DNA of 64,000 bases from a virus (IMGVR_UViG_3300032038_000060:8820-72819), one strand, 5' to 3'. Counted from the first letter of the stretch, positions 3,144 to 55,760 are shown. The notes: generated from the letters alone by a model not told the origin. Translations and numbers: made by a program.

Positions 3144-3314
3144 GGGGTTTTTTCTGACAAGGCACTGCCTTACTGTAAGGAAGGTGCAGAGGTTCAGGGA
3201 AGGGTGACATGGGAGCTCGCTCACGATGGCGCAATTACTTGAAGCACTGCAAGATCTTAACAAGACCAGTGCCGATGGCAGGGTTTTTTAGGTTTTTGTT
3301 TCCATACGCAAAGG
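3144..3314 (+). ncRNA. GGTTTTT-bracketed structured module C (candidate ncRNA)
   Basis: 130-nt body differs from the copy at 55588-55760 at 7 positions. Closing stem GGCACTG/CAGTGCC. Upstream GATTGT-GAAA-ACAATC GNRA hairpin. Tail GGGTTTTTTAGGTTTTTGTT..CGCAAAGG. Confidence 0.65.
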
Positions 3315-3378
3315 AGGGTTAAGGTTAGGGTTAACGTTAAGGTTGAATTAAATTAGAAACTTATATTTAACAATTTTT

Positions 3379-3879
3379 ATGAAGTGGTTCAGAAATTTAT
3401 TTAAGAAGAAATCTACCTCCCCTGAGGAGGCCGTACCTCTCACCATCGAGGGTGTAGAGCCTGCTCCTATGACACCGGAGCCTGACGATGCAGAACTGGC
3501 TGCACAAGCCATTCTTGAAACGCTGGCAGAGCCGAAGGCGGCAACGAAAACGAAGACGAAAACAAAAAAGAAAACCGTGAACCGTGAACCCTTAACCGAG
3601 AACCGTGCCTCTGCCGACCATTTTCGTGAGCTCGCGAAAAAGATACGCCAGGCACATGAGCAGTCACGGCAACGGACGCTGCGGTTTATATGTTACTGCG
3701 AGCAGGAACTGCAAAAGCCTGATCTGCCGGAGGTGGGTAAGGGCTCGCTCAGTCTGCTGGAGGCAGAACTGTATAAGCGCATCGACACGGTAGAGCGCGA
3801 GGGTGGCGACTTGAAACGCCGCTGGCAGCACTGCCTGGCCGAGGTTACAGTAAGGCGGATAGGAGTGGATAACGGTTAA
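3379..3879 (+). CDS. Hypothetical protein (166 aa)
   Basis: ATG after an AT-rich leader. Carries an in-frame ACCGTGA-type heptamer run (TVNREPLTENR). Confidence 0.65.
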   Translation: MKWFRNLFKKKSTSPEEAVPLTIEGVEPAPMTPEPDDAELAAQAILETLAEPKAATKTKTKTKKKTVNREPLTENRASADHFRELAKKIRQAHEQSRQRTLRFICYCEQELQKPDLPEVGKGSLSLLEAELYKRIDTVEREGGDLKRRWQHCLAEVTVRRIGVDNG

Positions 3880-3920
3880 CGGTTAGAGGTTAGAGAGGGC
3901 TGCGCGGTGGGCTCAGACCG

Positions 3921-4093
3921 AGGTTTTTCCATGATAGTATGCGGAAAACCTGTTAGGGTGTGTGATGTGAGGTGGGCGCTTTGGATGGATGCTTGCATAC
4001 AAGAAAAAGCGAATGCCTCGCATCATAAGGTGCTGCAGGCACTCGCATACTGTCATGGGGTTTTTTAGGTTTTTGTTAATACTCGCAAAGGGG
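3921..4093 (+). ncRNA. GGTTTTT-bracketed structured module B (candidate ncRNA)
   Basis: AGGTTTTT, then a 15-bp closing stem 3929-3943/4044-4058 (one T-G pair), then GGTTTTTTAGGTTTTTGTT..CGCAAAGGGG. Confidence 0.55.
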
Positions 4094-4261
4094 ATAGGGT
4101 TTTGTTTCCATACGCACCTCGTGCTTTTTCATTAGTATTCATGGGACTTGGAGACATAAAACGTGAAAGGCAAAACGCAATTAGAAACATGCGTTTAACA
4201 TTTATTATGTTTAAGGGAGTCAAGTACATTTCTGTGTTTTTTTAGCGACTGATGAAGGAGC

Positions 4262-4436
4262 GGGGTTTTTCCTGACAAGGCATAAACCTGACGCAAGGCA
4301 GGTGTAGAAGTTCAAGGACTGACGACATAGGAGCTTGTTCATAGTGACGGCAGAACTTGAATTGCGACATCAGTCTGTAAAGACTTTATGTCGATGGCAG
4401 GGGTTTTTTAGGTTTTTGTTTATCTTCGCAAAGGGG
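4262..4436 (+). ncRNA. GGTTTTT-bracketed structured module A (diverged paralog of C and D)
   Basis: Same ends as C/D (GGGGTTTTTCCTGACAAGGCA ... GATGGCAGGGGTTTTTTAGGTTTTTGTT). Compensatory stems GGCATAAA/TTTATGTC, TTCAAG/CTTGAA and AGTCT-GTAA-AGACT. Confidence 0.65.
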
Positions 4437-4439
4437 CAC

Positions 4440-4635
4440 AAAAAAGCGCCACCCCAATGAAAAGCTACAACATGGGATGGCGCGAGGGATGACACGAAAG
4501 TCATCCGCTGCATGGCTTTCTTAGGACAATTAATATACAAAAGCAGCACCTCACGGTGGTTATGGAAAAATGAGTGTAAGCAAATATCGCAGGAAACAGT
4601 CCTGACTCCAGAAAGAGTTCACAGAACTGATTTCT
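4440..4635 (-). ncRNA. Candidate small RNA H with its own promoter and intrinsic terminator
   Basis: Canonical TTTG-N20-TACCTTTG at 4672-4641. Internal CACC-GTGA-GGTG and GGATGAC/GTCATCC hairpins. Terminator GCGCCATCCCA/TGGGGTGGCGC plus T6. No convincing ORF. Confidence 0.65.
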
Positions 4636-4640
4636 GAGTG

Positions 4641-4672
4641 CAAAGGTACTACTTTTTTATGTATCTCGCAAA
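4641..4672 (-). promoter_or_regulatory. Bacteroidota-type housekeeping promoter (leftward)
   Basis: TTTG-N20-TACCTTTG matches the established -33 TTTG / -7 TAnnTTTG consensus. Confidence 0.75.
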
Positions 4673-5218
4673 TAATCAGTGAGTTATCTTCGCCGCCGCA
4701 AAAAATATTTTTAAGGAGTTCCGCCGTTCGCAGCATCTTATATTTTTGTAAAATACCGCGTAATGTATTGATTTACAATTATTTATAATATATTTTTGCG
4801 GTTATATATATTTTTTCCTTAATATAAAGTATAGTAAAAATAAATAAAAGTTATCTATATATTATATGTAATAGACTGATAATCAATCTTTTCTTTTCTT
4901 TGTTAAATCCTTTTTATATAATGAGGAGAGCGGGGAGTTCTTACCTTTCAGAGAAAGATATGATTTGTAGGAATATTTTATGTTTATAAAAGGTTTTGTC
5001 TAAAAACGGGGGTTTTTCGGGAACAGGGTGTTTTTAGGCTTGTAACTTGTTGATTTTCATATATGTTACATGTGCCCAGACGCTTTAGGAACTGAACAAG
5101 GCTAAAAGGGTGCGAAATTTGTCGTAACTTATTGATTATCAGGTGCGCCCCTAAATCGTACCAAAAGTGCCCAAATAAACATTTTTTCGGGGAATTAAAG
5201 ATAACTCGCAGATTATTT
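4671..5218. promoter_or_regulatory. Cluster of six IHF-consensus-like sites
   Basis: YAA-N4-TTGAT-W exact at 4759-4776, 5042-5059 and 5124-5141. One or two mismatches at 4671-4688 (minus), 4868-4885 and 5201-5218. Confidence 0.55.
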
Positions 5219-5247
5219 GTGAGGAATTAAAATAATGCGTACCTTTG
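5216..5247 (+). promoter_or_regulatory. Bacteroidota-type housekeeping promoter (rightward)
   Basis: TTTG-N20-TACCTTTG ending 16 nt before the ATG at 5264. Confidence 0.75.
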
Positions 5248-5263
5248 CAGAAAATTAAAACCG

Positions 5264-5863
5264 ATGACGAACAATACCTATACTATGCCGGCGATATGCT
5301 GGCTGAAGATTACTGACTACATGAGGCCGTGGATGGAGCATGAGCTTGGCGGCGAGGTGAGGGCTGGCGAACAGCGTGTGATATGCGTACAGCATCTTCC
5401 TGGGGCGCGTGAAATACTCCGGATGGAAACGAAGGAGGAGATGATGGAGCAGCGTATCGTCGGCAATACTATGTCGGCCACCTTACGCAACTGTATTGAT
5501 GCAGGCATGGTACTGGATGCTTCGGCAGTAGAAAGGATGTATGGTATTACAAAAGAGAATCTGAAAGCGTATATGCCAATAGAGTGTCCGAAGATGTGCC
5601 TGACGAAGGACGGCGTACTGCGCCCGTGGACTCAGGATGTGTATTTCGGACGACAGCAGGCTATAGATTTGCAAAGGCTGCTGAGAGTGGAATATTGGAA
5701 GGCGGTAGAGAGATTCAACGAAAGTTACAAGCGCAAAAAGAACGGACGCTGGTATCCTGCGGTCGAGATGATTGAGGACTTCTGCCAGGAGACGAACACT
5801 CCGGACATGTATATCGAGGCCATCAGGAGGGAGTGGCAGAGGAGGTGCAAATCAAAGGCGTAG
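5264..5863 (+). CDS. Hypothetical protein (199 aa), sole gene under the rightward promoter
   Basis: Clean ORF with promoter and A-rich leader. No motif recognised. Confidence 0.75.
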   Translation: MTNNTYTMPAICWLKITDYMRPWMEHELGGEVRAGEQRVICVQHLPGAREILRMETKEEMMEQRIVGNTMSATLRNCIDAGMVLDASAVERMYGITKENLKAYMPIECPKMCLTKDGVLRPWTQDVYFGRQQAIDLQRLLRVEYWKAVERFNESYKRKKNGRWYPAVEMIEDFCQETNTPDMYIEAIRREWQRRCKSKA

Positions 5864-5881
5864 GCTTTGATTTGGGTTTCA

Positions 5882-5990
5882 GGTTTGACTTCGTCGATAC
5901 TCCCAAGTTCTCCCAGTTCTGTCTAAGCCTCTTCGCAGAAGCAACATCGGCTTGACATCACTGGTCGCTTTGGGCGCATTCAGGTTTCAA
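5882..5990 (+). repeat. 109-bp dispersed structured element, copy 1
   Basis: Identical to 12761-12869. Diverged copy at 13238-13346. Confidence 0.9.
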
Positions 5991-6008
5991 GTTTCAGGTT
6001 TCAAGCCG

Positions 6009-6668
6009 TCAGCCGCGCATACTTTTGCCTTCAAAGACTATTACCTTCGTAATAGCTCTGAGGCGGTCGAGGGTGCGAAGGCCATAGCGGCCTTCGATGG
6101 AAGGTATGGCAGTGTCTGTGGCGCGAGTGGTACGCAGGTTGGTGGTAAGGACAAGCAGACCGCCGCGACGCTCGCAGCTGTCAACGATTTCGTTGAAGGG
6201 AATGTGACGGTTGCCATAAATGTTAACCTCCACGGGCTCGGTACCGATGTCGTCGATAAACAGGAGTGCGCCACACTTATCCTGTATTGTATCAAACTTC
6301 TGTGTCATGTCGATGGCCGTATAGCAGTTAGGGACTTTTCTGGCATAGCGGTTTATTAGCACCGGGATGATGTACTGACAGATTACTGTCTTACCCAGAC
6401 CGCAACTTCCCTGGCATAGCAGTCCCCTACCCTTGTTATCCGTTAGCCATTCAACCACCTTGTCATAGGCTGGGAGCCACTGATACTTCTCACCGAGATA
6501 ATATTGCAGGCCAGCACGCAGCTTTGCCTCTGCATCAGCGATGTGTATATGATGCTGCAGTTCTACTCGCGGTGTGTAGTTATACAACGCTTTACCATCA
6601 TGTCTGCTGGTGAGGTCGGCCACTCCGGCCCCGAAGTCATTCACGAGATTTTGATTTTCCATTACCAT
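6009..6668 (-). CDS. DnaC/IstB-like P-loop ATPase (helicase-loader type)
   Basis: Walker A GSCGLGKT, Walker B LLFIDDIGTE, TTNL and DRL motifs. Overlaps the rep stop codon. Confidence 0.8.
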   Translation of the reverse strand: MVMENQNLVNDFGAGVADLTSRHDGKALYNYTPRVELQHHIHIADAEAKLRAGLQYYLGEKYQWLPAYDKVVEWLTDNKGRGLLCQGSCGLGKTVICQYIIPVLINRYARKVPNCYTAIDMTQKFDTIQDKCGALLFIDDIGTEPVEVNIYGNRHIPFNEIVDSCERRGGLLVLTTNLRTTRATDTAIPSIEGRYGLRTLDRLRAITKVIVFEGKSMRG

Positions 6669-7951
6669 TCCTTCTGTCCTTTAAAATAATCTTCTGTCGT
6701 ATTCTGTATTATAGTGTCATTCCCACTACCCTTCTTCAGCGGCTGTGATGACACCTCTTGTGCGGAGGTGAAGCATTTGTTTTCCTCCTCACGGATATAA
6801 TCGTCTATGGCCTTATGAGTCCATGCTGCGATGTTACGGACATCGCTGTGTCTGCCTGCCATGAACTCGTCGTGCCACGTCTGCAGCTGTATGACAAACC
6901 CGGGCATGATAACGGGTGTTACACGACGGAGCAGGGCACGTGCCTGGTTGATGTGGAGTCGGAAAAATTCTATCATAAGTTTCTGACATAACTCACGGTT
7001 TGGGGCGTAATCATTTTCTTCTTGAATGGTTCGTCCGGCTTCTGTGGGCAATATAGTAAAGGCCACTGAATCAGGTCGTTTATATGGTGGCAGAGGTGTT
7101 CCATGTAATAATCCCTGGTAGGTGAAGGTGAAGTCAGAACCTCCACTCTCTGCAAGTTTATCAAGTTCTTTCTGGGCCTGATTGAGTACCTTTTCGCAGA
7201 ACTGACTCCATGAACCATAACGATTCTCACGTTCAGGATCGTCGCTATCCTTTACAAAACCAAGACGTGTGCGTAAATCGCGCATAGGTATAACAAACTG
7301 TTCACTCTTTAGCCGACGCCATTCTTCAGAAAGGTATATGTATAGGGGGTATGAAAAACTGCTACGCAGACGACCTGCTGTATATCCTATAAACCGAGTA
7401 TAGTTACTGAAGAGATTTATATCAAGAATATTTTCTGCCGTAAGTCGTGGAATGATAACTGTAAAATCAGTACCTATAAATTTTCCGCCCTCGCGCTTGC
7501 CATGTATCTGCATCAAATTCTCTGTACGGAAGGACCCCGGATTATTTTTGTCTGGGATAAAGCATTGCACATGAGTAAGGGACGCAAGAACAATTCGCGC
7601 CTCTTCATAATGTGTATCGTCGGCTATATCGGACATGTGAAGTTTGAAAAGGATATCGCCCTCGTTATAAATATCCCTCTTCTCCCTGACGACCTCAAAT
7701 TCATCCGTAATAAAGTTTAGGTATAATTGTCCGGTCTTGTCAGCCTGTGGCATCTTGGCAATGCGCCACAAACCTTGCAGACGCTGGAGCACGGCTATCA
7801 GCACACGGTAGCCAGTAACCTTATTCATCATCGGTAAGTGGGCCAACTGACGGGGCTGTGTAATCAAGTCCTGAAGACTTAGAGTAACGGCTTTTTTCTT
7901 CTTTTTCTTTGCCTTGGGTTTAGTTCCTTCGGCAGATTTCTTTGTAACCAT
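6662..7951 (-). CDS. Plasmid-type replication initiator (Rep_3/RepA winged-helix family)
   Basis: LRSSFSYPLYIYLSEEW..IPMRDLRTRLG..YGSWSQFCEKVLNQAQKEL matches the Rep_3 pattern. Start moved to the ATG at 7951 behind the promoter at 8010-7979. Iterons are adjacent. Confidence 0.8.
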   Translation of the reverse strand: MVTKKSAEGTKPKAKKKKKKAVTLSLQDLITQPRQLAHLPMMNKVTGYRVLIAVLQRLQGLWRIAKMPQADKTGQLYLNFITDEFEVVREKRDIYNEGDILFKLHMSDIADDTHYEEARIVLASLTHVQCFIPDKNNPGSFRTENLMQIHGKREGGKFIGTDFTVIIPRLTAENILDINLFSNYTRFIGYTAGRLRSSFSYPLYIYLSEEWRRLKSEQFVIPMRDLRTRLGFVKDSDDPERENRYGSWSQFCEKVLNQAQKELDKLAESGGSDFTFTYQGLLHGTPLPPYKRPDSVAFTILPTEAGRTIQEENDYAPNRELCQKLMIEFFRLHINQARALLRRVTPVIMPGFVIQLQTWHDEFMAGRHSDVRNIAAWTHKAIDDYIREEENKCFTSAQEVSSQPLKKGSGNDTIIQNTTEDYFKGQKEW

Positions 7952-7978
7952 AAGAGTATTTTTTGTTGTAGCTGGGTG

Positions 7979-8010
7979 CAAAGGTAAGTATTTAAATCGT
8001 AACCTCCAAA
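7979..8010 (-). promoter_or_regulatory. rep promoter
   Basis: TTTG-N20-TACCTTTG. Confidence 0.7.
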
Positions 8011-8194
8011 TTTTTTGAAAGATTTTTTTATTTTTAATTGCATTTTTATTTGTTTTGATATTCAGAGATTTACATTTCATGGCCTTATATTTTGGGCAAG
8101 CACAACTATAAATTCGGAAAACCTTTCCTTATATTTAGGGCAGTTCTGGCTGCTATTTCGGTAAATAAAATCTTCATTTTCGAGAAACTTCTTT

Positions 8195-8359
8195 ACCTAC
8201 CAATTCGGAAAACTACCACCTACCAACTCGGGAAACTGATTGTATTTTACCTACCAATTCGGGAAACTGTCACCTACCAATTCGGGCAATTATAACCTAC
8301 CATCAGAGGAAAATGATACCTACCAACACGGAAAACCACCACCTACCAATTCGGGAAAC
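8195..8359 (+). repeat. Iteron array (replication origin)
   Basis: Seven ~19-bp ACCTACCAATTCGGGAAAC-type repeats starting at 8195, 8218, 8249, 8272, 8295, 8318 and 8341 (mostly 23-bp period). Further copy at 8510, inverted copies near 8643, 8701 and 8750, IHF-like site at 8368-8385. Confidence 0.85.
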
Positions 8360-8850
8360 TTTCTCTTGTAACTTATTGATAACCAGTACGGATATCTGCC
8401 CATATATAGTATTTCTATATAATATTCTATATGGATTCTATAGGAAAAACGATTCGGGGAAAATCATATTTTTATGGGGAAAGGATATCTCGGACATATT
8501 TATAATTTTACCTACCAATTCGGAAAACCACCTCTTCCGGCAAATTACCGGCAAATAAAAACGCATTGATATACAAGCACTTACAGAGCGCATGGATTTC
8601 CTGCGCAAATAAAACAATCCTGAAGGTTTTCCGGAAACATAGGTTTCCCGAATACGTAGGCATTACGTGTACGCGCGTAAACACAAGCGCCTTGTGCAGG
8701 TTTCCCAAATTGGTAGGCGCATGTGCTCGCGCTATACAACGCCCACGAGTTTTCCGAAATAGTAGGTAAAGTTCCCGTTTTGTCCGAAAACAAAAATCGC
8801 CAGCAATCTGGATGACTGCTGACGAGATTGTTACATTTTGTAATTGTTTG

Positions 8851-9231
8851 TCACTTAGTGTATGTCGTGGTGAGCTGCGATGCCATTTCGCGGAAGCGCT
8901 TATAATCTTCGTCGCTGATCGTACCAGAGGAACGTAGGCCGTCAATAATGAACATATAGATAGCACGGTGCTTTGGGGTGTCGCTGTCCGTACAGTAATG
9001 CTGTAGAGCATTAAACACCTCCTTTGGCATAATGGTTGTTGCCTTCTTGGTAGGGAATGGCATTACTACCCCGCCCTGCTTATTCTGCACACTTTGTATA
9101 ACAGTCTGGGGGTGCTGCACTTGTTGTGGTTCAATATCCAAACCTGCTATTTGTGTATTCTCTTCGTTGGCTATTGCCGTGTCAATACGGCTCTGTAAAG
9201 AACGGCGCTGTGGTTGATTTTTAGTACTCAT
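8851..9231 (-). CDS. Small ParA partner, probable ribbon-helix-helix centromere-binding protein
   Basis: Directly downstream of parA. Flexible N-terminus then KATTIMPKEVFNALQHYC..HRAIYMFIIDGL (RHH-like), as in type Ib partition cassettes. Confidence 0.55.
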   Translation of the reverse strand: MSTKNQPQRRSLQSRIDTAIANEENTQIAGLDIEPQQVQHPQTVIQSVQNKQGGVVMPFPTKKATTIMPKEVFNALQHYCTDSDTPKHRAIYMFIIDGLRSSGTISDEDYKRFREMASQLTTTYTK

Positions 9232-9301
9232 AGTTAATTCATGTTATGCAACCGCACAAATATGCAAATGTGCAAATGCGTGGTTGCTGGTTAATATTTT
9301 T

Positions 9302-10165
9302 TTATTTACCCCATTTCTTTAAATATTCATTAGCGAGTGCAATGAAATCATCGGTAGCGCGTCCACGTCCTTTGCGATAAGAGAATATGTCATGACACAT
9401 ACCAGGCTGATTGTCAAAGTCTCTGTCTTGCGAGTTAGGAACATCGTTGGTTCTGCTGATAACGGTCTTAAACACATCGCCCTCTGCGCGTAGAGCTTCT
9501 TCATAACTCTTAGCGCTGTTCAGACGGGAATCCTTCTTGGTTAACAGAACACCATGTATCTGAAGGTTCGGATTAGAGACCTTCTTTATCTTCATTATCT
9601 TACCGATTGTCTCTACATAGCCATCCACTGCCAGCGGTTCAAGTTCTACTGGTATTATTATTCCCGTAGCTGCACACACGACATTAACGGTTACACGCGA
9701 CATCGCAGGCTGTGTGTCGATGAAGACAAAATCGAAAGCACTCTCCCACTCTTTCAGACCTTCGCCTGTATGGTCGTCAATAGGCTCGGCGAAAAGAGAT
9801 TTCAGAACACGTACAGGGTCTGTCACTTTTGTGCTGTTGAGATAGACATCTGCATCTGCCATATTCTTTGAGGATGGAGTAAAATACAGTCCTATTTCAT
9901 TACGATATACCGGAATGTTTGCACCAAGACAGATAGCATTGAAAATGGTGGGCTCTCCTGGATTGTCTTTCGTCCCCTCGCGAGCCATATCCCATCCTGC
10001 CGATACAGAGAGATTACATTGTGGGTCAGTGTCTATAATAAGCACCTTGTAACCTTGCTTACTGATGGCTGCTGCCAGATTAAGTGTTGTTGTGGTCTTT
10101 CCTGCCCCACCCTTACTGTTGCTCACGGCGACAATGTGCCTGAGATGTGTTTCTTTCTTTTTCAT
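9302..10165 (-). CDS. parA: ParA partition ATPase
   Basis: Deviant Walker A KGGAGKTT, IDTDPQCNL, FVFIDTQP. Confidence 0.9.
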   Translation of the reverse strand: MKKKETHLRHIVAVSNSKGGAGKTTTTLNLAAAISKQGYKVLIIDTDPQCNLSVSAGWDMAREGTKDNPGEPTIFNAICLGANIPVYRNEIGLYFTPSSKNMADADVYLNSTKVTDPVRVLKSLFAEPIDDHTGEGLKEWESAFDFVFIDTQPAMSRVTVNVVCAATGIIIPVELEPLAVDGYVETIGKIMKIKKVSNPNLQIHGVLLTKKDSRLNSAKSYEEALRAEGDVFKTVISRTNDVPNSQDRDFDNQPGMCHDIFSYRKGRGRATDDFIALANEYLKKWGK

Positions 10166-10224
10166 TGTTGTAGCTTTTAAAAATGAGTAAAATATTTTTT
10201 TAATAATAATATTTCCTTATTATT

Positions 10225-10720
10225 ATGCAACCGCACAACTGCATAATACCATAGTTCCATAACTGTGCAACTATTCAATTTTACCTATTCTAAAATATGC
10301 ATCTGCACATTTATGCATGTATGTAACTATGCGATTATGTAGCCGCACAGCTGCACAATAACGAACCCACACATATTTGCGGTTGCATAACCACACAAGT
10401 ACACAACTGCGCATATATGTAGTAATGCGGTTGCAGAAATGCCTAACTGTGCAAATGTGCAAATATGTAATTACTTGTCTGTATAGTTGCACACATGTGC
10501 AGTTATGCGGTTCTGCAAATTTAATATTGCGTGGTCGCATACTTGTGCTTTTGTGCAGTTGTGCAACTCTGCGATTACATAAACTATATTCCGATGATGG
10601 GAAATTATATTCCTTCGTCGTCCCTAAGCTGGGTATATCCATAGTGTTGTCTTATTTGTTGTAGCTGGTGCAAAGGTATGCATAATTTTGCAACTGCACA
10701 ACTTTGCAACTGCAAACGTG
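10225..10720. repeat. Tract of degenerate TGCACA/TGTGCA repeats, candidate parS centromere
   Basis: Many TGCA(A/C)-core units, often with an ~8-bp period (e.g. TGCAACTGCACAACTTTGCAACTGCA), upstream of parA. Smaller patch at 9246-9285. Confidence 0.55.
10671..10678 (-). promoter_or_regulatory. -7 element of the probable par promoter
   Basis: TACCTTTG followed by CACCAGCTACAACA, nearly the same 5' leader as rep. Confidence 0.55.
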
Positions 10721-10997: not shown

Positions 10998-11024
10998 CAC
11001 GAAAAAACAAAAATCAGGTTTGAT

Positions 11025-12760: not shown

Positions 12761-12869
12761 GGTTTGACTTCGTCGATACTCCCAAGTTCTCCCAGTTCTG
12801 TCTAAGCCTCTTCGCAGAAGCAACATCGGCTTGACATCACTGGTCGCTTTGGGCGCATTCAGGTTTCAA
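12761..12869 (+). repeat. 109-bp dispersed structured element, copy 2
   Basis: Identical to 5882-5990. Confidence 0.9.
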
Positions 12870-12893
12870 TTTTCAGGTTTCAAGTTTCAGGTT

Positions 12894-13046
12894 ATGAAGA
12901 AGAATTGTTTGAATTGTATGAGGGTAAAACCTCTGCTTGATGGAATTGCGAAGAAGGGTCACGGCTGTATAAATAATCCTGACATGCGTGTCAACGGACG
13001 TATGGTATGTGAGGAGTGGAAGTCGGGAGACGTGACAATAGTTTAA
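12894..13046 (+). CDS. Small Cys-containing protein (50 aa)
   Basis: MKKNCLNC..GCIN..VCEEWK. True ATG follows the heptamer run. Confidence 0.55.
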   Translation: MKKNCLNCMRVKPLLDGIAKKGHGCINNPDMRVNGRMVCEEWKSGDVTIV

Positions 13047-13079
13047 AGTTTAAAGTTTAAAGTTTAAAGTTAAAGAGTT

Positions 13080-13238
13080 ATGTATCACATGTTTAAGGAT
13101 GACCCGTGGGGAAACAAGATACCAATAATGTCGATTGCACACAAGAGTGTTGCTGATGATTTTCTTCAGAAGCACAAAGACATTATCACAAAGGTGGTGA
13201 ATGTTCCAAGCAATGTTCAATCTCTGATAGTGGTGTAG
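13080..13238 (+). CDS. Small hypothetical protein (52 aa), not in the ORF track
   Basis: ATG at 13080 to TAG at 13238 (MYHMFKDDPWGNKIPIM...), co-oriented in the operon. Confidence 0.5.
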   Translation: MYHMFKDDPWGNKIPIMSIAHKSVADDFLQKHKDIITKVVNVPSNVQSLIVV

Positions 13239-13346
13239 GTTTGACTTCGTCGATAATCCCAAGACTCCCTATAACGTCTAAGCCTCCCCACGGGGGTAAC
13301 ATCGGCTTGTCGCTATTCGGTCGCTTTGGGCTCATTCAAGTTTCAA
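13238..13346 (+). repeat. 109-bp dispersed structured element, copy 3 (diverged)
   Basis: Same length and ends. Inner hairpin CTTC/GAAG is replaced by CCCC/GGGG. Confidence 0.8.
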
Positions 13347-13356
13347 GTTTCAGGTT

Positions 13357-13704
13357 ATGGGTAGGAGGAAACAGCAGGAAGAGGAGAAGGCGCCGCAGAG
13401 TGTCACTGATATTGAGTCGCTGAAGAACAATGTCGATACGGCGGTGATGGACTTTGCGGAGAGGTATATGTCCGTGCCGAGGTTTACGGAGTTCTGCGAG
13501 GTGAAGGACCAGCGACAACTACGTGACGCTATGGGGCTGCGTGCCACAGATGCCGGAGACCCGTGGCCACAGGCAGAGAAACAGTTGTTGAGTCTGGGCT
13601 TCCATTGGCAATGGCTTGGTGGCAGCCGTGTGATGTTTCTGCAGGAGAGAGAGGACTACCAGCCTGACGACGGATGGCAGGAGGCGATACCGGTTAATGG
13701 TTAG
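13357..13704 (+). CDS. Hypothetical protein (115 aa)
   Basis: Clean ORF in the operon. Confidence 0.7.
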   Translation: MGRRKQQEEEKAPQSVTDIESLKNNVDTAVMDFAERYMSVPRFTEFCEVKDQRQLRDAMGLRATDAGDPWPQAEKQLLSLGFHWQWLGGSRVMFLQEREDYQPDDGWQEAIPVNG

Positions 13705-13748
13705 CGGTTTCAGGTTTTAAGTTTCAGGTTTCAAGTTTCAAGTGAGTT

Positions 13749-14177
13749 ATGACACCGAAAGAGAATTGCAAACGTTTTGTTTCTGCTGTGTCGAAGCGCA
13801 GCGGGATATGTAAGGCGACTGTCGAGCAGGTGCTGCCGGCAATATTTGACGAGATACGTTATCAGTTGGTAGAGGGTAAGATTCCACATGTGCCTATTGA
13901 TTCGTTCGGCACCTTTGCCATAAAAGAGATGCCGCAACGTCAGTATCACTATACTCGCGGCGGTAAGGATGAGTTGCGCATTCTGGAGGCAAAGAAGATA
14001 ATAAAGTTTGCTCCGGCACATAACCTTGCCAAAGAGGTGAAGTGTGGGGTATTTGACCCTACGCGAAGAGCATTCACCCGTCATCCTGACGACCCGATAA
14101 TCAGGCGTCGCAAGAACTTTAAGTATAAGCCTTTGATAGGAGATATACCGAAGGGGCAAGTAACGGTTATAGGTTAA
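13749..14177 (+). CDS. HU/IHF-like DNA-bending protein
   Basis: VSKRSGICKATVEQVLPAIFDEI..IDSFGTFAIKE..IIKFAPAHNL follows the HU/IHF pattern. Confidence 0.75.
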   Translation: MTPKENCKRFVSAVSKRSGICKATVEQVLPAIFDEIRYQLVEGKIPHVPIDSFGTFAIKEMPQRQYHYTRGGKDELRILEAKKIIKFAPAHNLAKEVKCGVFDPTRRAFTRHPDDPIIRRRKNFKYKPLIGDIPKGQVTVIG

Positions 14178-14209
14178 AGGTTAACGGTTAAAGATTAAAG
14201 ATATAGGTT

Positions 14210-14863
14210 ATGGAAGACAATGATTATCGCTATGATGGCGACGAACCTGTAAAGGAGATTATACGCAGATTCTTTTATGTTATGATTGTTTTTTTCTCAA
14301 CAATCATTGGGTGTCTGTTGATATGTTCGTTTTTCAGCAGCTGCAGCGCACCGAGGGAAACCTCGTACATAGAGCAGCATAAAATGGAGAGGATGATGGA
14401 ACGCATGGATTCTGTCATCAGCACAAAGACTATTATACAGCAGGATAGTGCTTGGCGTGAGTCTATCATGCGCCAGTTTGAGAGCATACGGGAAAAGAGT
14501 GACACGAGCCATACCATAGTGCTTGACTCCGCCGGAAATGTTATCAGGGAGAAAATAATTATAAACAATATCCGCGAGACAACCAGCGAGAAGGAGCGTA
14601 AGGAACGCGAAGGGATGATACACCGTATGGAGGTGATGGATTCTACTATGAATATCATGCGTCAGCAACTCAGCACTACTGACTCCCTTCTACGTTCGAG
14701 GGAAGATACAAAGATAAAGGAGGTAGAGAAAGACCTGTCATGGTGGCAACAGGCAAGGATATGGTTAGGTAATATGGTACTGATAGCACTTGTCATCGCG
14801 GCTGCGATATGGGTAGTTAAGAAGAGGACTTGGTGGCTGACGTTGATAAGGAAGATTATATAG
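14210..14863 (+). CDS. Lipoprotein with a C-terminal membrane anchor, probable spanin
   Basis: Hydrophobic signal ending FSSC (lipobox-like), coiled-coil middle, C-terminal TM (IWLGNMVLIALVIAAAIWVV). Lies upstream of the endolysin. Confidence 0.55.
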   Translation: MEDNDYRYDGDEPVKEIIRRFFYVMIVFFSTIIGCLLICSFFSSCSAPRETSYIEQHKMERMMERMDSVISTKTIIQQDSAWRESIMRQFESIREKSDTSHTIVLDSAGNVIREKIIINNIRETTSEKERKEREGMIHRMEVMDSTMNIMRQQLSTTDSLLRSREDTKIKEVEKDLSWWQQARIWLGNMVLIALVIAAAIWVVKKRTWWLTLIRKII

Positions 14864-14907
14864 TTTCAGGTTTCAGGTTTCTGGTTTCAGGTTTCAAGTT
14901 TTAGGTT

Positions 14908-15174
14908 ATGAAGACTTTAGCATTATCAGAATTGCGCCGTGTTGCTGAGCGCTTTGACGCTAAGCATGAGCGCATACCGTGGAAGGTTTGGTATGTGGCG
15001 GCCAGTAATGGCGACTGCATAAGGGGTGAGGCGTGTGTCACTATTGCAGTTGATGTTAATGGTCCGGGAGCTTTTCCTTCACGGCTGGTACAGTTTACCG
15101 CCAGCGGACAGACACGCCGCCTGCGCGACTGCTGCATACTGAGGGCGGACGATTTTATACTGAGGGTGTTATAA
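14908..15174 (+). CDS. Hypothetical protein (88 aa)
   Basis: Clean ORF between heptamer runs. Confidence 0.65.
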   Translation: MKTLALSELRRVAERFDAKHERIPWKVWYVAASNGDCIRGEACVTIAVDVNGPGAFPSRLVQFTASGQTRRLRDCCILRADDFILRVL

Positions 15175-15236
15175 CGGTTAACGGTTAAAGGTTAACGGTT
15201 AAAGGTTAGAGATTTTAAAAAAAAAATATAAAGACT

Positions 15237-21165: not shown

Positions 21166-21247
21166 TCTGTTGGAAACAGGATGGTTTCTGGTTTCTGGTT
21201 CCAGGTTTTAAGTTTCAGGTTTCAAAAAATACAAAACAGGAAGTAAG

Positions 21248-27167: not shown

Positions 27168-28418
27168 TCATGCCACTAAAGGTTTACATTTTAACATATC
27201 GGCATCGAACTCTATAATCTGTGAGATGTCGTTCGTATCAAAAATCTCGCGGCGAAGGTTATAACTGGCTGTGTGAGAGAGTATTCCAAGATAGCTGCTG
27301 ATAGTGAGGTTTGCGGATTTGACATTGCGAAGATCTATTTCCTGCATTCTAACCTTTATACGCTCCAGCGTCTTGTTACTCACATAATCACGGTACGGTT
27401 TCACAAAAGTACCCAGAAACTCTACTCCCTTATGCACCTCCTGTATATGTAGCTTGCCCATAAGTAATTCCAGCCCAAGTTCATCATATAAAAACTCTCG
27501 CACCTTTGGCACTTGGGCCAAAAGCCATTCCTTGTCAGGGTCAATCATATTGCTGTCATCAACATATCTGCCATAATGTCTGCACAAAAGGATACGCTTT
27601 ACGTATTGGTCGAACACATTCAGATAGACATTACTGAAGAGTTGTGAGGTAAGATTGCCGATTGGCAGAGCCAATCCTTTCTCGACAAAGCGCATGCACT
27701 TAGCATGGTCAATATCATCCCAGTCAGAGGGGTCGCCTACTATCTGGCAATTTTCCATCGGGTCAAGCATCACAATCTGCTCGGTGAGCCACAAGATAAA
27801 ATCGAAGTCACGTATGTCTGCCCATGTGGTTTCAGAAGTCAGTAGCACACCAGAAGGTATTGACACCTCATCGGACACACCTACTTTGTGTGTTGCCATT
27901 TTCTTTAACGAGGCCGTCGCTATCTTCAGTAACTTCTCGCGATTTATGTGCATAAAATAACCGCGAATATCAAGGCTCATAGCGTATGCTTCCTCCTGCC
28001 AATTAAGCGACGCCTCACGCACATGTTTACGAATACGTTCTATTCCATAGCCTGTTCCACGTCCCTCTATGCAAGAATAGGAGTCGGCAATAAAGGTGCG
28101 TTCAAACAGTTGGTGCGTATAGTTGAAATACAGGTGATGCACGATGCGGTCACGAAAAATTGCAGCGAACACTTCGCGTTTCTTAGGATATGTAACAACA
28201 AAGCACTTTGATGGAAGTGCTTTGTATCTGCGCATTAGCAGGTCATCACAAAGAGAATTTAGATTCTCTGCCAGATTGCGCTCGAACTTCTGCACGTACG
28301 ACATCTTGTGCTTATGCCTTGCGGCATCATAAAATGCTACATATAGGTCGTAAAGAAGTTGCTGGCGGGTAAGATGATACGTATGGCTAAGAGAGGAATT
28401 GACTGACTCGTATGTCAT
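27168..28418 (-). CDS. DGR reverse transcriptase
   Basis: KREVFAAIFRDRIVHH, LDIRGYF, LPIGNLTSQ, YGRYVDD. ATG at 28418 just after the TR. Confidence 0.95.
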   Translation of the reverse strand: MTYESVNSSLSHTYHLTRQQLLYDLYVAFYDAARHKHKMSYVQKFERNLAENLNSLCDDLLMRRYKALPSKCFVVTYPKKREVFAAIFRDRIVHHLYFNYTHQLFERTFIADSYSCIEGRGTGYGIERIRKHVREASLNWQEEAYAMSLDIRGYFMHINREKLLKIATASLKKMATHKVGVSDEVSIPSGVLLTSETTWADIRDFDFILWLTEQIVMLDPMENCQIVGDPSDWDDIDHAKCMRFVEKGLALPIGNLTSQLFSNVYLNVFDQYVKRILLCRHYGRYVDDSNMIDPDKEWLLAQVPKVREFLYDELGLELLMGKLHIQEVHKGVEFLGTFVKPYRDYVSNKTLERIKVRMQEIDLRNVKSANLTISSYLGILSHTASYNLRREIFDTNDISQIIEFDADMLKCKPLVA

Positions 28419-28430
28419 CGTAGATAAGGG

Positions 28431-28610
28431 CTGGACTGGACGCACAGGGAAACCGTTGTACCGGTTGTTGTTGTTCTGTGGATTGACACCACCACTGTTG
28501 AAGTTCAGGTTGCGGGCATTACGACTGCTGTTGAACGTAGAAGACCAGTAGTTCCCGTTTGAACCGCGATTATTGCGAGACGTACCATTACCGTTGCCAG
28601 AGCAGGCAAT
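28431..28610 (-). repeat. DGR template repeat (TR)
   Basis: 180 bp aligning without gaps to 29508-29687; 17 mismatches, all at TR adenines of the coding strand; 17 Asn (AAY) codons. Confidence 0.95.
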
Positions 28611-28819
28611 CGGGAAAATATACCTCAAAACAAAACCTGCATACGTCCTGAGTAATGCGTCGGTTGTTACCTATATGGCAGCAAGGAAGAACACTGGGAG
28701 CCACCTTGCGTCTTTACTTTTTCCCACATCCTACGGATGGAGGACGAACAACCTATGAACTTGTCTAATTCCTGACATCGGACTTTCCTTGTCTTTTTAT
28801 CACTTTACGTATCTTATAG

Positions 28820-29395
28820 TTACAATATTGCAGAGACCTGCTGTTTAAGCGATTGAATAAACTGGATATTGTCAACTGCCGTCCGTTCACTAAGGGGATA
28901 AGACATAATTTGCGAAAGCATACCACCCGACGGCTTTTGTTCCTGCTGGTGCGTGATTTCCACTATTTTCCCCTTTTTCTTTTCAGTAACTTTTATACTT
29001 TCTTTCCAACTCCCAAAATTATTAACGAGGCTGTCTTCTGTGAGCTCGCTACCTTCATCTGGTTGGGGCAAGGCAACAGTTATGATAATATGGCTATCAT
29101 CAATGCTCTCAAAATTCTGGCGATTCGGAATGAATTTCTCAATCGAACGAAGCGGAAAGCCAACACTGCAGTATGTACCATTTTCGTCAGCCAGGTTCAT
29201 TCTGGAAACCTTTAGCGGCCTCCGTGATTTTGTATTCATCCTGGCCTCTTCGGTATAGGTGACAGTAGCAATGAGCCAAGCGCTCCATTCATACGCTTTC
29301 CAGAAATCACCTTGCTTGAACAAATGGATTTTATTCCATGTTGACGATTCTTTGCGTTCGCTTTCGATCGCCAAGCACTCTGTAAGTTGCGCCAT
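28820..29395 (-). CDS. DGR accessory protein, MutS-N-like (MSL) type
   Basis: IHLFKQGDFWKAYEWSA resembles the MutS mismatch-recognition domain. Lies between the target gene and the TR. Confidence 0.7.
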   Translation of the reverse strand: MAQLTECLAIESERKESSTWNKIHLFKQGDFWKAYEWSAWLIATVTYTEEARMNTKSRRPLKVSRMNLADENGTYCSVGFPLRSIEKFIPNRQNFESIDDSHIIITVALPQPDEGSELTEDSLVNNFGSWKESIKVTEKKKGKIVEITHQQEQKPSGGMLSQIMSYPLSERTAVDNIQFIQSLKQQVSAIL

Positions 29396-29423
29396 ATTTT
29401 TTTCTTTTGTTATTTACACGTCG

Positions 29424-29494: not shown

Positions 29495-29504
29495 AATTGA
29501 CAAG

Positions 29505-31664
29505 TTACTGGACTGGACGCACAGGGAAACCGTAGTACCGGTAGTTGTTGTTCTGTGGATTGACACCACCACTGCTGAAGGACAGGCCGCGGGCACTACG
29601 ACTGCTGTAGAACGTAGAAGACCAGTAGTTCCCGCCTGAACCGCGAACATAGCGAGACGTACCACTACCGTAGCCAGAGCAGGCAAAGAACAATCGCGCA
29701 CCATTTATCTTGCTCTCAATGTAAAGACCTCTAATGCCATTAACTATTACACGCTTATCGGTTTTGGTTGTATCTACTTCTGTTCCATCAGCGTTTATAT
29801 AGATGATATTGTTGAAGAGCTCAACAAATTCTTCTCTGGTAGGCATACGCCAAGGAGCACCGAGATTGGCACGTGCTGCATCAAACTCTTCTCCGACAGC
29901 GATATTACCTGTTAGGGTATTACCCTTGGTGCTGCCATACACCTGTCCTTCATAGTAAGGTTCAGCATCGTTAACTCCTCCCCAATTCCAAGGACTGAAG
30001 GAACTGTCACTTGTCGGATTGTGACCATCAATGTTTCCCCAACTGAAGAATGTCTTCTCATATACAAAAGGTGTATCACAAAAACCACCTGGCTTTGTAA
30101 TATCTATATCTCTTGCAGCCCATTTCACTCCACTTGGTAAACCCATATCAACAATCAATGCGGCTGGGTCAAAGGATGCATCAGGACAGAACATATTGAC
30201 AATATTCCACGCTGTGCCGGCGTACACCAATGTTACGTAGGTTTGTGCTTTGATGACACCGGCAGGCAATTTCTGCCCAAGAATATGGATAGGTTTCGCA
30301 CCTGTCATGCTCACGTTGAGCGTTGCGTTCTCTGTGTTGATTGGCGTGGTGAAGAGTACATTTATAGTACCGTTCTCCAATAGCACAAATTGAGGGATAG
30401 CAACCATCTTTGCTGCATCATAGGTGCCGGTCGAGCAGATGCCGTAGCCGAGACTGACGGCAGCGGCAGAAGTGCGCAGCACGTTCAGACGGGGAGCGGC
30501 ATTGGCCAGCGAATCGGCGACGTTCTGTGCATATTCGCAGATGAAGGTGGCCTCGCCTTCTGCACCCTCCTTCATTTCCACGCCCACATCGTTCAGCGCA
30601 TAGTCGCTGGAGAGGTTGACGGTGGCAATGGCAGGGATTTCCTTCTCATAGCGCACAGCACCGCTGATGGCAGTAGCGTTGGTGTCGCTGTAGCTGACGG
30701 TCGTACCATTGACTGACAGTGCCTGCTCTGAACCTTCAATCATGGCTGAGCCAGAGGCGGCAATGCCGCTGATAACCAGCGAGTGTGTGTAGGTCTGTGT
30801 CTCACCTTCCTCCACCTCGTCGGGGGTGTCGGTCCATACAGGCGAAGCGATGCGTGCAATCGGATCGGTAATCTGCCACTGGCTTGCACTGATGCGCTCT
30901 GCGACGGTCTTGGCACGTCCGCAAACGAGGAACTTGCCTGTGCCATTAGGTGCTGCAGCGAACAGTGCGCTCAGGCTCAGGCTGCCGCCGAGGTCGTCTT
31001 CTGCCGTAGGACTGATAAACTTGTTGTACCAATCCTCCCAGGCGATGCGGGCACAAGTCTCGGCATAGATGATGCCGCTGACGATGATATAGCCAGGGCC
31101 GCTGGTGGTATATACCTTATAGGTGTTGCCGTTATAGGTAACTGTCTGAGGCGTGAGGGCAATGCCGTCGTTTACGGCTGTAGGTACACCACTTTCGGGA
31201 GCCTTGAAATAGATGGTGGCATTCTGGATATTCGAGCCGTCCTGAGCCACGAGAATCATTCCGTTGTTCTCGTCGGTCGTTCCGAAGGTGCCGAGTGTCA
31301 GCTTAGGCACGGGGAAATACCAACCGGCACCCACGGCCACCGCACCGCCTCCGTTTGTCTTCAGGCGCAACTGGTTCTCAGCTGTTGCCAACAGTCCTGT
31401 ACACTTGAAGTCAGTGACAGGCACGATGCTCTTCAGCACACCGCCATCATCGCTGTTGATGGGGTCGTTGCCAGCCGTCGTGCGGACGGTATCGTCGAAA
31501 TCGTTCTCTACAGGGAGGTTCTCCTCCGCCCACGATTCGAGATTACCAGCATTCAGGTCGGGGTAGGACCCGTCTGTGCTCGCCTTCTTAGGCATTTCTG
31601 TTTTCATCAACTCATCATGGTAAGCACCAAGCAAGCCTTCATTGATTAAATCTGTCTGTGCCAT
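29505..31664 (-). CDS. DGR target: receptor-binding/adhesin protein with a C-terminal CLec-like domain
   Basis: VDMGLPSGVKWA..FFSWGN..WRMPTREEF..GNYWSST..GFPVRPVQ, with the VR at the C-terminus. Confidence 0.9.
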   Translation of the reverse strand: MAQTDLINEGLLGAYHDELMKTEMPKKASTDGSYPDLNAGNLESWAEENLPVENDFDDTVRTTAGNDPINSDDGGVLKSIVPVTDFKCTGLLATAENQLRLKTNGGGAVAVGAGWYFPVPKLTLGTFGTTDENNGMILVAQDGSNIQNATIYFKAPESGVPTAVNDGIALTPQTVTYNGNTYKVYTTSGPGYIIVSGIIYAETCARIAWEDWYNKFISPTAEDDLGGSLSLSALFAAAPNGTGKFLVCGRAKTVAERISASQWQITDPIARIASPVWTDTPDEVEEGETQTYTHSLVISGIAASGSAMIEGSEQALSVNGTTVSYSDTNATAISGAVRYEKEIPAIATVNLSSDYALNDVGVEMKEGAEGEATFICEYAQNVADSLANAAPRLNVLRTSAAAVSLGYGICSTGTYDAAKMVAIPQFVLLENGTINVLFTTPINTENATLNVSMTGAKPIHILGQKLPAGVIKAQTYVTLVYAGTAWNIVNMFCPDASFDPAALIVDMGLPSGVKWAARDIDITKPGGFCDTPFVYEKTFFSWGNIDGHNPTSDSSFSPWNWGGVNDAEPYYEGQVYGSTKGNTLTGNIAVGEEFDAARANLGAPWRMPTREEFVELFNNIIYINADGTEVDTTKTDKRVIVNGIRGLYIESKINGARLFFACSGYGSGTSRYVRGSGGNYWSSTFYSSRSARGLSFSSGGVNPQNNNYRYYGFPVRPVQ
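29508..29687 (-). repeat. DGR variable repeat (VR)
   Basis: 3' end of the target gene. 12 of the 17 TR Asn codons are changed to Y/S/G/V. Confidence 0.95.
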
Positions 31665-50151: not shown

Positions 50152-50158
50152 AACTACT

Positions 50159-50192: not shown

Positions 50193-50207
50193 CAGAATAA
50201 AAAACTT

Positions 50208-54152: not shown

Positions 54153-54201
54153 AACGATTTTTAATTCATAATTCACAATTCATAATTCATAATTATCTTT
54201 T

Positions 54202-54235
54202 GCCCTTGAAGTTGGAAAGATGAAACACTATATTG
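54202..54235 (+). promoter_or_regulatory. Putative phage late promoter (holin)
   Basis: GCCCTTG-N20-TATATTG. Confidence 0.7.
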
Positions 54236-54256
54236 CAGGCAAACAAGATAGAAACG

Positions 54257-54826
54257 ATGGTTATAAAACTCTTGGCGGCTATTGCCGCATCATACAATGA
54301 ATTTATGCAAGCGATGGCAGGCGTGACATGGACAGAGTGGATATGCCTTACCTTAGGAGGTCTCCTCGGATGGGTGATAGGCGAGTTTGCCCCCGCATTC
54401 CCGCTGCTGGCAGTAGCATTCCTCTTTGTGTTATACGATGCTTGGTCAGCTTTCGAGTTAGACAAGCGAGTACATAAGGTCTATCCCGACAAGGTAAAGC
54501 GCGAGCAGGCGAAGTTCGTCAGTTATAAATTCAGGTCCGTCATACCTACGCTCATCGAGCGCATGATAATCATCATCCTGGCATTCTGCTGCGAGCGTTG
54601 GGTCTTCGTACACGTCAGCGTACCATTCAGCTATATTGCAGCTGCCGTAGTCTGCGCGGAGCAGGCACTGAGCATTGCAGAGAACAAGGCATCATGCCGT
54701 CTGCCGGGCGACAAGCACGCAAGGCTGTGGAAGATGCTGGCGAAGGTGCTGATAGACAAGACGGAGAGGCACTTCGACATAGACCTCGGCCCTGAAGTCC
54801 ATAAAGAAGAATTTAAAGAGCAGTAA
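54257..54826 (+). CDS. Holin
   Basis: Three hydrophobic segments and EQALSIAEN. Start at the ATG at 54257. Confidence 0.7.
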   Translation: MVIKLLAAIAASYNEFMQAMAGVTWTEWICLTLGGLLGWVIGEFAPAFPLLAVAFLFVLYDAWSAFELDKRVHKVYPDKVKREQAKFVSYKFRSVIPTLIERMIIIILAFCCERWVFVHVSVPFSYIAAAVVCAEQALSIAENKASCRLPGDKHARLWKMLAKVLIDKTERHFDIDLGPEVHKEEFKEQ

Positions 54827-54845
54827 AGATTTTACAGCAGTTAGT

Positions 54846-54958
54846 TTTTTTCATACATGTTTTTGAAGGTTTTAGCCTTTTAAAGGTATTTAGGTTAGTT
54901 TTTTGGTTAGATTAGAAACGAAGAAGACCGCAGTCCGTGAGGATAGCGGTCTTTGCTT
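54846..54958 (+). terminator. Terminator with an upstream TTTTTTCATACATG motif and TCC-GTGA-GGA inner hairpin
   Basis: AAGACCGC..TCCGTGAGGA..GCGGTCTT. Shares TTTTTTCATACATGTTTTT with 21248. Confidence 0.55.
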
Positions 54959-55001
54959 TAAGGCTCATGTGCCAGCCTACCTGAGACATGGAGCCTGAAA
55001 C

Positions 55002-55322
55002 TCAAAATCCAAAGGCTTTGTCTATCTCCTCCTCGGTCTCGTCACGCTCCTCGGAACGTAAGTACTTCGGCGGCGGTATTGGGGTCAGCAGGAAGTCCGG
55101 CAGCCATGCCTCTTCATGCAGCCCGCCAAGACTATCGCAGAAATGTAACAGGACAAAATTGTTCTTGATGCCTATGCCCTCACCTTCACGGCCATGCCAG
55201 CGGTTAAGGAGCAGACGCACGGCATCGCGGAACTGATACTTTGTCTCAAACCCGTGTTCGAGGTGGTCACGCAGTGGCACGGAGTCCATGTTCTCCGCCA
55301 CGCGGTAATAATGCTTACTCAT
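55002..55322 (-). CDS. Hypothetical protein (106 aa)
   Basis: Start at the ATG at 55322 (MSKHYYR), directly behind module E. Confidence 0.65.
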   Translation of the reverse strand: MSKHYYRVAENMDSVPLRDHLEHGFETKYQFRDAVRLLLNRWHGREGEGIGIKNNFVLLHFCDSLGGLHEEAWLPDFLLTPIPPPKYLRSEERDETEEEIDKAFGF

Positions 55323-55337
55323 AATTTTTTCTTTTAT

Positions 55338-55517
55338 AAACAAAAACCAAGAAAACCCTTTTTGAAAGTTTCAGCACTGTCGTGCTTATACTCTGCTATC
55401 GTCATGAATGTGGTCGTAAGTAAACTTCCACCATCTTCCTGCCGATATCACGACCTATCCTAACGGAAGTTTAAACTTTCCAAAAGAAAAACCCTGCTGA
55501 CGCAGAAAAAACCTCTG
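55338..55517 (-). ncRNA. GGTTTTT-bracketed structured module E (candidate ncRNA or leader)
   Basis: GAGGTTTTT, hairpin CTGC/GCAG, GGTTTTT, closing stem GAAAGTTT/AAACTTTC, then GGGTTTTCTTGGTTTTTGTT. Confidence 0.5.
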
Positions 55518-55587
55518 CTTGCGTTCTTTCATTCTACTGTTGAGTCAGTCTGATGCACAATCTGTTTTTTTAGCGACTGGAAGGAGC

Positions 55588-55760
55588 GGGTTTTTCCTGA
55601 CAAGGCACTGCCTTACTGTAAGGAAGGTGCAGAGATTCGAGGAAGGGTGACATGGGAGCTCGCTCACGATGGCACAATTACTTGAAGCGCTGCAAGGTCT
55701 GAACAAGACCAGTGCCGATGGCAGGGGTTTTTTAGGTTTTTGTTTTCATTCGCAAAGGGG
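55588..55760 (+). ncRNA. GGTTTTT-bracketed structured module D
   Basis: Near-identical to module C at 3144-3314. Confidence 0.65.

Follow-up and report, generated by a model that had tools for sequence, protein, structure and literature searches.

What kind of element keeps a branched fold while almost all of its sequence changes? The question is raised by a 64,000-nucleotide (nt) stretch of viral DNA (the window), comprising bases 8820–72819 of the 72.8-kb IMG/VR virus record IMGVR_UViG_3300032038_000060, itself estimated to be 61% complete. An earlier note, made from the sequence alone, described three dispersed copies (A, C and D) of a multi-stem element and read them as an RNA outside any family known to it. 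Here we find that the element, of about 135 bases, is present in six copies (A–F) whose four-armed fold is kept while the sequence changes, and that these copies are the arms of small cassettes absent at the same sites in relatives, a context that the earlier reading missed. Because the cassettes are lacking at those sites and one of them is flanked by what looks like a 10-bp duplication of its target, a mobile-element reading is at least as strong as that of a free-standing RNA gene. We propose, with about even confidence, a mobile cassette restricted to one phage lineage, the arms of which are strand-specific modules combining a structured RNA with a terminator. If this reading holds, it would be an undescribed element family of gut and rumen Bacteroidota phages.

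The fold and its covariation

With A, C and D as its sole input and a four-way-junction structure, a covariance model (R1) found three further copies, B, E and F, in the window, and a second model (R2) was then built from all six (scores in Table 1). The earlier note was therefore right about the three copies that it named and short in its total of three, as there are six, on both strands. The named copies lie where it placed them (C to 3314, D at 55587–55758 and A at 4262–4434, including the 3′ motif), C and D differ at seven body positions, and A is strongly diverged, being about 73% identical to C. Its quoted pairings can likewise be read off the sequence: the closing stem GGCACTG/CAGTGCC is replaced by GGCATAAA/TTTATGTC, the variants TTCAGG, TTCGAG and TTCAAG all face CTTGAA, and the 3′ hairpins are present.

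The shared architecture is a four-way junction with a closing helix P1 (15–17 bp; positions ~8–24/125–141 of the element), a small hairpin P2 (~26–40), a long arm P3 (42–108) bearing a partly conserved apical motif, and a hairpin P4 (110–124), joined by strands that are variable between members. Each of A, C and D folded alone gives this same structure, bearing out the shared multi-stem fold that had been claimed for them. B, E and F have almost no primary sequence in common with A, C and D beyond the flanks, yet their minimum-energy folds set helices at the same positions; folded singly, B reaches −66.1 kcal/mol (z −7.5), E reaches −50.1 kcal/mol (z −4.4) with the same helix layout, and F has a fold z of −2.9. 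A search with R2 also recovered, from a further rumen phage contig, an ortholog of A (L120:10850–10998(−), 115 bits); the contig L121 has the identical piece.

Covariation among these seven sequences, also part of the original claim, is extensive. Across one architecture, 89.6% of pair cells hold standard pairs, as against only 37–48% when the partners are slid by 1–3 columns as a control, and 36 of the 47 pairs have changed on both sides, values that none of 500 shuffles reaches; these counts are flattered because the alignment was fitted to the model, although the independent single-sequence folds point in the same way.

Several features distinguish the two strands. Within pairs, G–U outnumbers A–C by 31 to 5 on the strand assigned to each copy, and the P4 loops on that strand read GUAA in A, GCAA in E and GACA in F, with GUGA in the L120 ortholog of A, a change that keeps the GNRA type. 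In all seven copies P1 is followed by GGGG and a T-run on the strand that bears the G–U pairs, and the U's of the 5′ flank GGGGTTTTT pair with these 3′ G's, such that P1 would reach right to the U-tract. The geometry of an intrinsic terminator, with a 15–17-bp, G–U-extended P1 running into 4–6 T, is accordingly seen in seven copies. The strands are not separable by fold z-scores alone. This good but indirect evidence points to the folded strand, + for A–D and − for E and F, as the probable RNA, agreeing with the + strand that had been proposed for A, C and D.

Part of the original reading did not survive. The conserved two-state fold would have the 3′ arm pair alternatively with an internal segment, a pairing that does not surpass those formed when the internal sequence is shuffled (the fraction of shuffles performing at least as well is 0.06 to 0.84); the position of the internal partner differs between copies, and the CGACAT partner is lost in the L120 ortholog. 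The suggestion that no known RNA family is involved fared better: no Rfam 15 family matches at gathering thresholds in the 64 kb, and the best permissive match, to the multi-stem small RNA Clostridiales-1, scores 19.7 bits against a gathering threshold of 48 (E 0.21). ARAGORN finds no tRNA or tmRNA gene in the window. A coding role is contradicted by frames from the ATG at the P3 apex that differ between copies (A has no ATG, and in D a stop follows after 16 codons), by changes that are compensatory rather than codon-like, and by the lack of any open reading frame (ORF) of at least 80 amino acids (aa) there. An antisense regulator was rejected, since complementarity to other parts of the window extends at best to words of 12–14 nt, about the chance level, as was a riboswitch or other ligand-binding leader, given the variable junction strands, an alternative pairing not above shuffles, and the fact that most copies do not precede a gene.

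Cassettes, their borders and their distribution

The pairs E/C and F/D are each arranged back to back, some 100 nt separating the 5′ ends of the two elements. The resulting composites share a subterminal inverted repeat of 22–24 nt near their ends, which is the reverse of the bracket (the short repeat flanking each junction) plus the GGTTTTTGTT motif. At a 40-aa cutoff F/D holds only ORFs of 43 and 53 aa, both with TTG starts and both overlapping junctions, and a listing at 80 aa or more gives none in E/C.

Comparison with other strains delimits these units precisely. In assemblies from four sequencing runs (X1–X4, compared as DNA contigs only), contigs of X1 and X4 join 2856 to 3318, skipping exactly E/C, and contigs of X2 and X3 join 4116 to 4434, skipping exactly the A module; the latter breakpoint falls between two copies of the 3′ end motif. 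Contigs of these other rumen samples also join the bracket of C to that of B (3145 to 3922, with 7 shared letters). In one contig of X2, E and ORF166 are kept and the intervening 270 nt are swapped for 271 nt that cannot be aligned. The large ORF that ends at 2753, just before E/C, corresponds to the 3′ portion of a tape-measure protein of 2992 aa (PF10145) such as is typical of relatives of 100–145 kb; in the closest relatives at this locus, L110 and L111, the tape-measure gene and the ORF166 homolog stand without E/C between them. At the tape-measure locus of L120 there is a 311-bp version, its right arm an A-type junction and its left arm only a plain hairpin plus GGGGTTTTTGTT in place of E, so that the difference amounts to the E core and one bracket.

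The clearest site is that of F/D. The genes flanking it, gene137 and ORF106, are adjacent in relatives, lying 75–180 nt apart in L120, L117 and L118, and in L116 they overlap on TATGAGTAAG, a 10-mer present there once. In the window TATGAGTAAG occurs twice, on either side of the 438-bp insert, with the gene137 stop and the ORF106 start each in one copy. This pair looks like a 10-bp target-site duplication. The duplicated target adjoining D (55762–55774) reads CTTACTCATAAGG, and it forms a near-palindrome, as does the P2 hairpin of D and of C (CTTACTG-TAAGG, at 55610–55622 in D); the likeness could be chance, and C, at a different site, has the same P2.

The flanks of the arms are conserved to a degree that their cores are not. 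Each of A–D is followed by an invariant GGGGTTTTTT-A-GGTTTTTGTT-N6-CGCAAAGG, which matches exactly at four places in the window where 0.08 would be expected; of this end motif only the first half is retained in E, F and the L120 copy. A GAGTCA-like box lies in the leader 45–51 nt upstream of five of the six copies, and this leader pattern has no other use elsewhere in the genome. Small hairpins (P0) stand just before each 5′ bracket, that of C (3124–3147) being terminator-like. E, A, D and the L120 copy are located at convergent gene or RNA junctions. The composites have also entered positions within or beside tandem arrays of 6–7-nt units (GGTTTCA, GGTTAAC, GGTTAGA and AATTGAA types), which occupy many of the spaces between genes, immediately ahead of start codons and following stops. 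In the window these arrays are at 2769–2856, 3318–3350, 3866–3897, 12858–15227, 21186–21228 and 56176–56262, and they are found in the related phages L110, L117 and L120 as well.

Table 1 Elements, cassettes and flanking motifs in the window
Feature	Position	Strand	Description
E/C composite cassette	2857–3317		461 bp; two outward-facing arms, ~100-bp centre
Element E	2887–3034	−	R1 35.7 bits, R2 111.6 bits; four-way junction, 5′ GGGGTTTTT bracket, T-rich 3′ tail
E/C centre	3035–3143		GAGTCA-like boxes ~45–51 nt before each arm; P0 hairpins
Element C	3144–3290	+	R1 163 bits; four-way junction with brackets
3′ end motif after C	3291–3314	+	GGTTTTTGTT-N6-CGCAAAGG; exact match
Element B	3921–4066	+	R1 46.1 bits (model without B); fold as in the others, primary sequence unrelated
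3′ end motif after B	4068–4091; second, partial copy 4095–4116	+	Exact match; repeat family D19
A module	4117–4433	+	Leader with minus-strand plain hairpin, element A, end motif; block absent in other strains
Element A	4262–4410	+	Four-way junction with brackets
3′ end motif after A	4411–4434	+	Exact match
Target, left copy	55314–55323		TATGAGTAAG read on minus strand; contains ORF106 start codon
F/D composite cassette	55324–55761		438 bp; between gene137 stop and ORF106 start
Element F	55349–55495	−	R1 34.6 bits, R2 107.7 bits; four-way junction with brackets
Element D	55587–55734	+	R1 173.6 bits; four-way junction with brackets
3′ end motif after D	55735–55758	+	Cassette end 3 nt further
Target, right copy	55762–55771		Contains gene137 stop codon

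The family has a narrow distribution. A covariance-model search that recovers all six copies from the record of the window itself gave no match in any of 35 related phage records of IMG/VR, of which 14 are 90% complete or more, and the relatives L006, L110–L119, L134 and L135 have no copies. Scanning IMG/VR, metagenome contigs and species genomes for the motif returned chance matches only, those in the metagenome contigs and species genomes all failing when checked against the model, and blastn against phage and plasmid collections found nothing. The family is seen in one other contig set and in near-identical strains from bovine and sheep gut DNA runs; parts of the region are present in 20 runs, several of them with diverged copies, and among the runs listed for 2700–5300 there is none of RNA. 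The sources of proteins homologous to the neighbouring products name Prevotella. These absences indicate that the family is either young or of narrow spread. An invading element would fit such a pattern better than would a core function of phages, and the narrowness also limits the generality of what can be said of the family.

A proposed mechanism and its competitors

On the basis of the fold, its strand bias and the cassette borders, we suggest that the element is one arm of a non-coding, transposon-like cassette of about 310–460 bp that would be confined to one lineage of ~120-kb tailed phages of rumen Prevotella. A full cassette would consist of two arms pointing out from a centre of ~100 bp, with each arm ordered, on its own strand, as the small hairpin, GGGGUUUUU, the four-way junction, GGGGUUUUUU, and then GGUUUUUGUU with the end motif. 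The run of P1 up to the U-tract, as in an intrinsic terminator, leads us to read the arms as modules that would stop transcription at the RNA level: transcription arriving from either side or arising in the centre would halt at the cassette border, leaving a compact and stable RNA end formed by the four-way junction. Cassettes would enter intergenic or gene-overlap sites, presumably moved by an enzyme, duplicating 10 bp of target, and arms would subsequently be lost or swapped by recombination at the direct bracket repeats. If so, selection on a branched fold, as for a functional RNA, would be joined with insertion and target duplication resembling those of transposable elements of the miniature inverted-repeat type (MITEs), two features that are usually separate; what passes for intergenic junk in phages could be a mobile, transcription-insulating module; and the arms would supply a compact natural part, terminator and RNA end in one, for Bacteroidota. 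The reading also raises the question of what recognizes a four-way junction of freely varying sequence.

A number of observations weigh against this proposal. As to mobility, a clean target duplication is found at one cassette only (F/D), the seemingly empty site of E in L120 could equally be a deletion between brackets, the outermost 14–16 nt of the composite ends differ such that the extreme termini are not inverted repeats, and Pfam and PHROG scans of the 51 window ORFs detected no transposase or integrase family. The RNA status of the arms is one that we infer from sequence, and a canonical host promoter (TTTG ... TAnnTTTG) precedes none of them. As to the fold, the P1 arms differ completely between members, near-identity is limited to the pair C and D, and the flattering of the pair counts by model fitting applies here too. 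Nor does termination account comfortably for everything that is conserved: a four-way junction exceeds the needs of a terminator, and if F terminated well it would cut ORF106 from its operon, because the ORF106 start codon lies 26 nt from the tail of F. The only occurrences of the canonical promoter pattern are at 4672–4641 (−) and near 5240 (+). The former, TTTG ... TACCTTTG, together with a strong hairpin and T-run at 4483–4440, brackets a minus-strand non-coding stretch of ~195 nt, and the terminator of this stretch (4440–4672) abuts the end motif of element A.

In an unlikely extension of this reading, the four-way-junction RNAs would be the active cargo of the cassette, conserved in shape and diversified in sequence, and recognized by a phage or host protein. 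Possible roles include a decoy for a host defence nuclease, a partner of the phage-encoded HU-like protein, or an RNA cofactor for insertion by analogy with the RNAs that the insertion sequences IS110 or IS605 encode at their ends. HU proteins bind four-way junctions, which makes the HU-like DNA-binding protein encoded at 13749–14177 (PF00216, E 2e-12) a candidate partner of the elements. Were this extension true, phages would harbour RNA-bearing mobile elements of a new kind.

An alternative account, also unlikely, makes the arms free-standing small RNAs acting in trans, each transcribed from its own leader in the GAGTCA-box region and ended by P1 and the U-tract, with a shape-recognizing protein as partner and the RNA as its sponge, decoy or scaffold; the cassette would then be only the means by which the gene travels. 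Helix lengths and layout that stay constant across members of unrelated sequence are as this account would have them, and so are the GNRA-type P4 loops, the partly conserved P3 apical motif, the leader found before five of six copies and nowhere else in the genome, and the presence of six paralogs within one genome. It is opposed by the lack of a recognizable promoter, by the P0 hairpin and T-run that stand between leader and junction in C and would halt the transcript, by the finding of no complementary target in the window above the chance level, and by the absence of the family from 35 related phages, which argues against a core phage function; a partner protein was not identified either. 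The conserved shape could instead serve single-stranded DNA, the folds being structure-recognized ends or recombination sites as in REPIN/RAYT systems, the ends of IS200/IS605 elements or integron attC sites, and the compensatory changes reflecting the needs of a DNA enzyme. This is improbable in our view, despite mobility evidence that is identical to that for the mobile terminator cassette. DNA hairpins also tolerate G–T pairs and loops of GNA or GNRA type, and REPINs likewise are inverted doublets with conserved ends and, in the middle, compensatory changes that keep the hairpin (PMC3116915). The T-run that always follows P1 on the folded strand is, however, explained by an RNA terminator and not by a DNA site; the paired arms are not complementary, so that a long REPIN-like hairpin does not form; and scans of the window revealed no HUH, Y1 or integrase gene. 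Y1 transposases are not known to leave a target duplication, and here 10 bp are duplicated.

If mobility is instead given up, the elements become immobile, elaborate intrinsic terminators or insulators, with the differences between strains produced by deletions and homologous exchange at shared tails. The terminator-like geometry, the positions at the borders of units and the breakpoints within shared repeats (3145/3922 and 4116/4434) suit such a view. We nevertheless regard it as very unlikely: the 10-bp gene-overlap duplication around F/D is not a terminator tail and cannot be made by deletion, selection for termination alone would not keep the inner junction, and 35 relatives are without the family.

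Known systems and genomic setting

The element appears to be of the structured-mobile-repeat kind while falling outside any named family. Its nearest analogues are REPINs, with MITEs acting in RNA and the small mobile elements of mycobacteriophages also close. REPINs, which are inverted doublets of repetitive extragenic palindromic (REP) sequences moved by RAYT, with conserved ends and a variable middle showing compensatory stem changes (PMC3116915), resemble the cassettes in being short, non-coding and extragenic and in the inverted pairing of units. In contrast to REPINs, the cassette arms fold singly into four-way junctions with no pairing between them, and the cassettes have a 10-bp target duplication, a phage host and six copies only. 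A REPIN/RAYT assignment was rejected for these reasons: E and C, and F and D, have brackets and fold in common and not complementary sequence, and a linked RAYT (Y1 transposase) gene, or any RAYT-like gene, was not found in the window. An integron attC reading was set aside as well.

The cassettes further resemble certain bacterial MITEs, being small and non-coding, with a target duplication and no transposase inside. Correia/NEMIS, ERIC and RUP elements are small and non-coding, have target duplications and inverted ends, give structured transcripts and can carry terminators or promoters. Such MITEs acting in RNA have been reviewed (PMC10969869). Unlike them, the cassettes do not end in clean inverted repeats, there is no known parent insertion sequence (Pfam and PHROG scans of the 51 window ORFs gave no transposase or integrase family), and the members are almost wholly different in sequence yet keep the branched fold, which argues against simple decay of MITE copies. 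Size brings the cassettes close to the ultra-small mobile elements of mycobacteriophages, which carry a small ORF. These elements, MPME1 and MPME2, are about 440 bp long and occupy varied sites in near-identical genomes, as the cassettes do, but their copies are identical in sequence and, in place of a target duplication, bring 6 bp the origin of which is unknown (PMC3029335), whereas the cassette members are diverged and show the 10-bp duplication; no structured arms have been described for MPME.

Intrinsic terminators share with the elements a G+C-rich helix base that is followed at once by a U-tract, and a location at the borders of transcription units. They differ in that the 'loop' of the element is a conserved 100-nt domain of three hairpins and that direct repeats flank its whole unit, which would travel as a cassette. 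The msr–msd RNA of retrons is similar in outline, having a small 5′ hairpin and a second, long one within an a1/a2-like helix that its two ends close. A retron RNA was rejected, with no reverse transcriptase adjoining any of the six copies; the only one in the window lies at least 22 kb from every copy (22.8 kb from A and 26.7 kb from F), next to two repeats that form a template/variable pair as in diversity-generating systems.

That reverse transcriptase (RVT_1, 27168–28628, −) belongs to a region, 27168–31664, that looks like a diversity-generating retroelement. Its repeat pair is of 179 nt (28431–28609 and 29508–29686, 91% identical), and the second copy lies at the 3′ end of an ORF of 719 aa, the product of which has a lectin-like domain at its C terminus. 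ORF166 (3379–3879), which lies between C and B, is a member of a large unannotated protein family, the clusters of which number over 400 and come without exception from gut or rumen assemblies, on contigs reaching 110–135 kb where long ones were assembled; its homolog is just downstream of the tape-measure gene in L110 and L111 and upstream of that gene in L113, L114 and L134. A plasmid-like maintenance region at 6009–10642 encodes ParA (9302–10165), a STAND-like NTPase and a 472-aa ORF with a weak match to a replication-initiator PHROG, and contains iterons of 23 bp at 8194–8383 and 8507–8532; the neighbouring ORF of a relative matches Rep3_C, and a phage-plasmid lifestyle is possible for this phage. 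A further movable intergenic module may be represented by a 124-nt direct repeat of 99% identity (5882–6005 and 12761–12884) that follows two different ORFs on the + strand, with a third, diverged and partial copy at 13265–13309.

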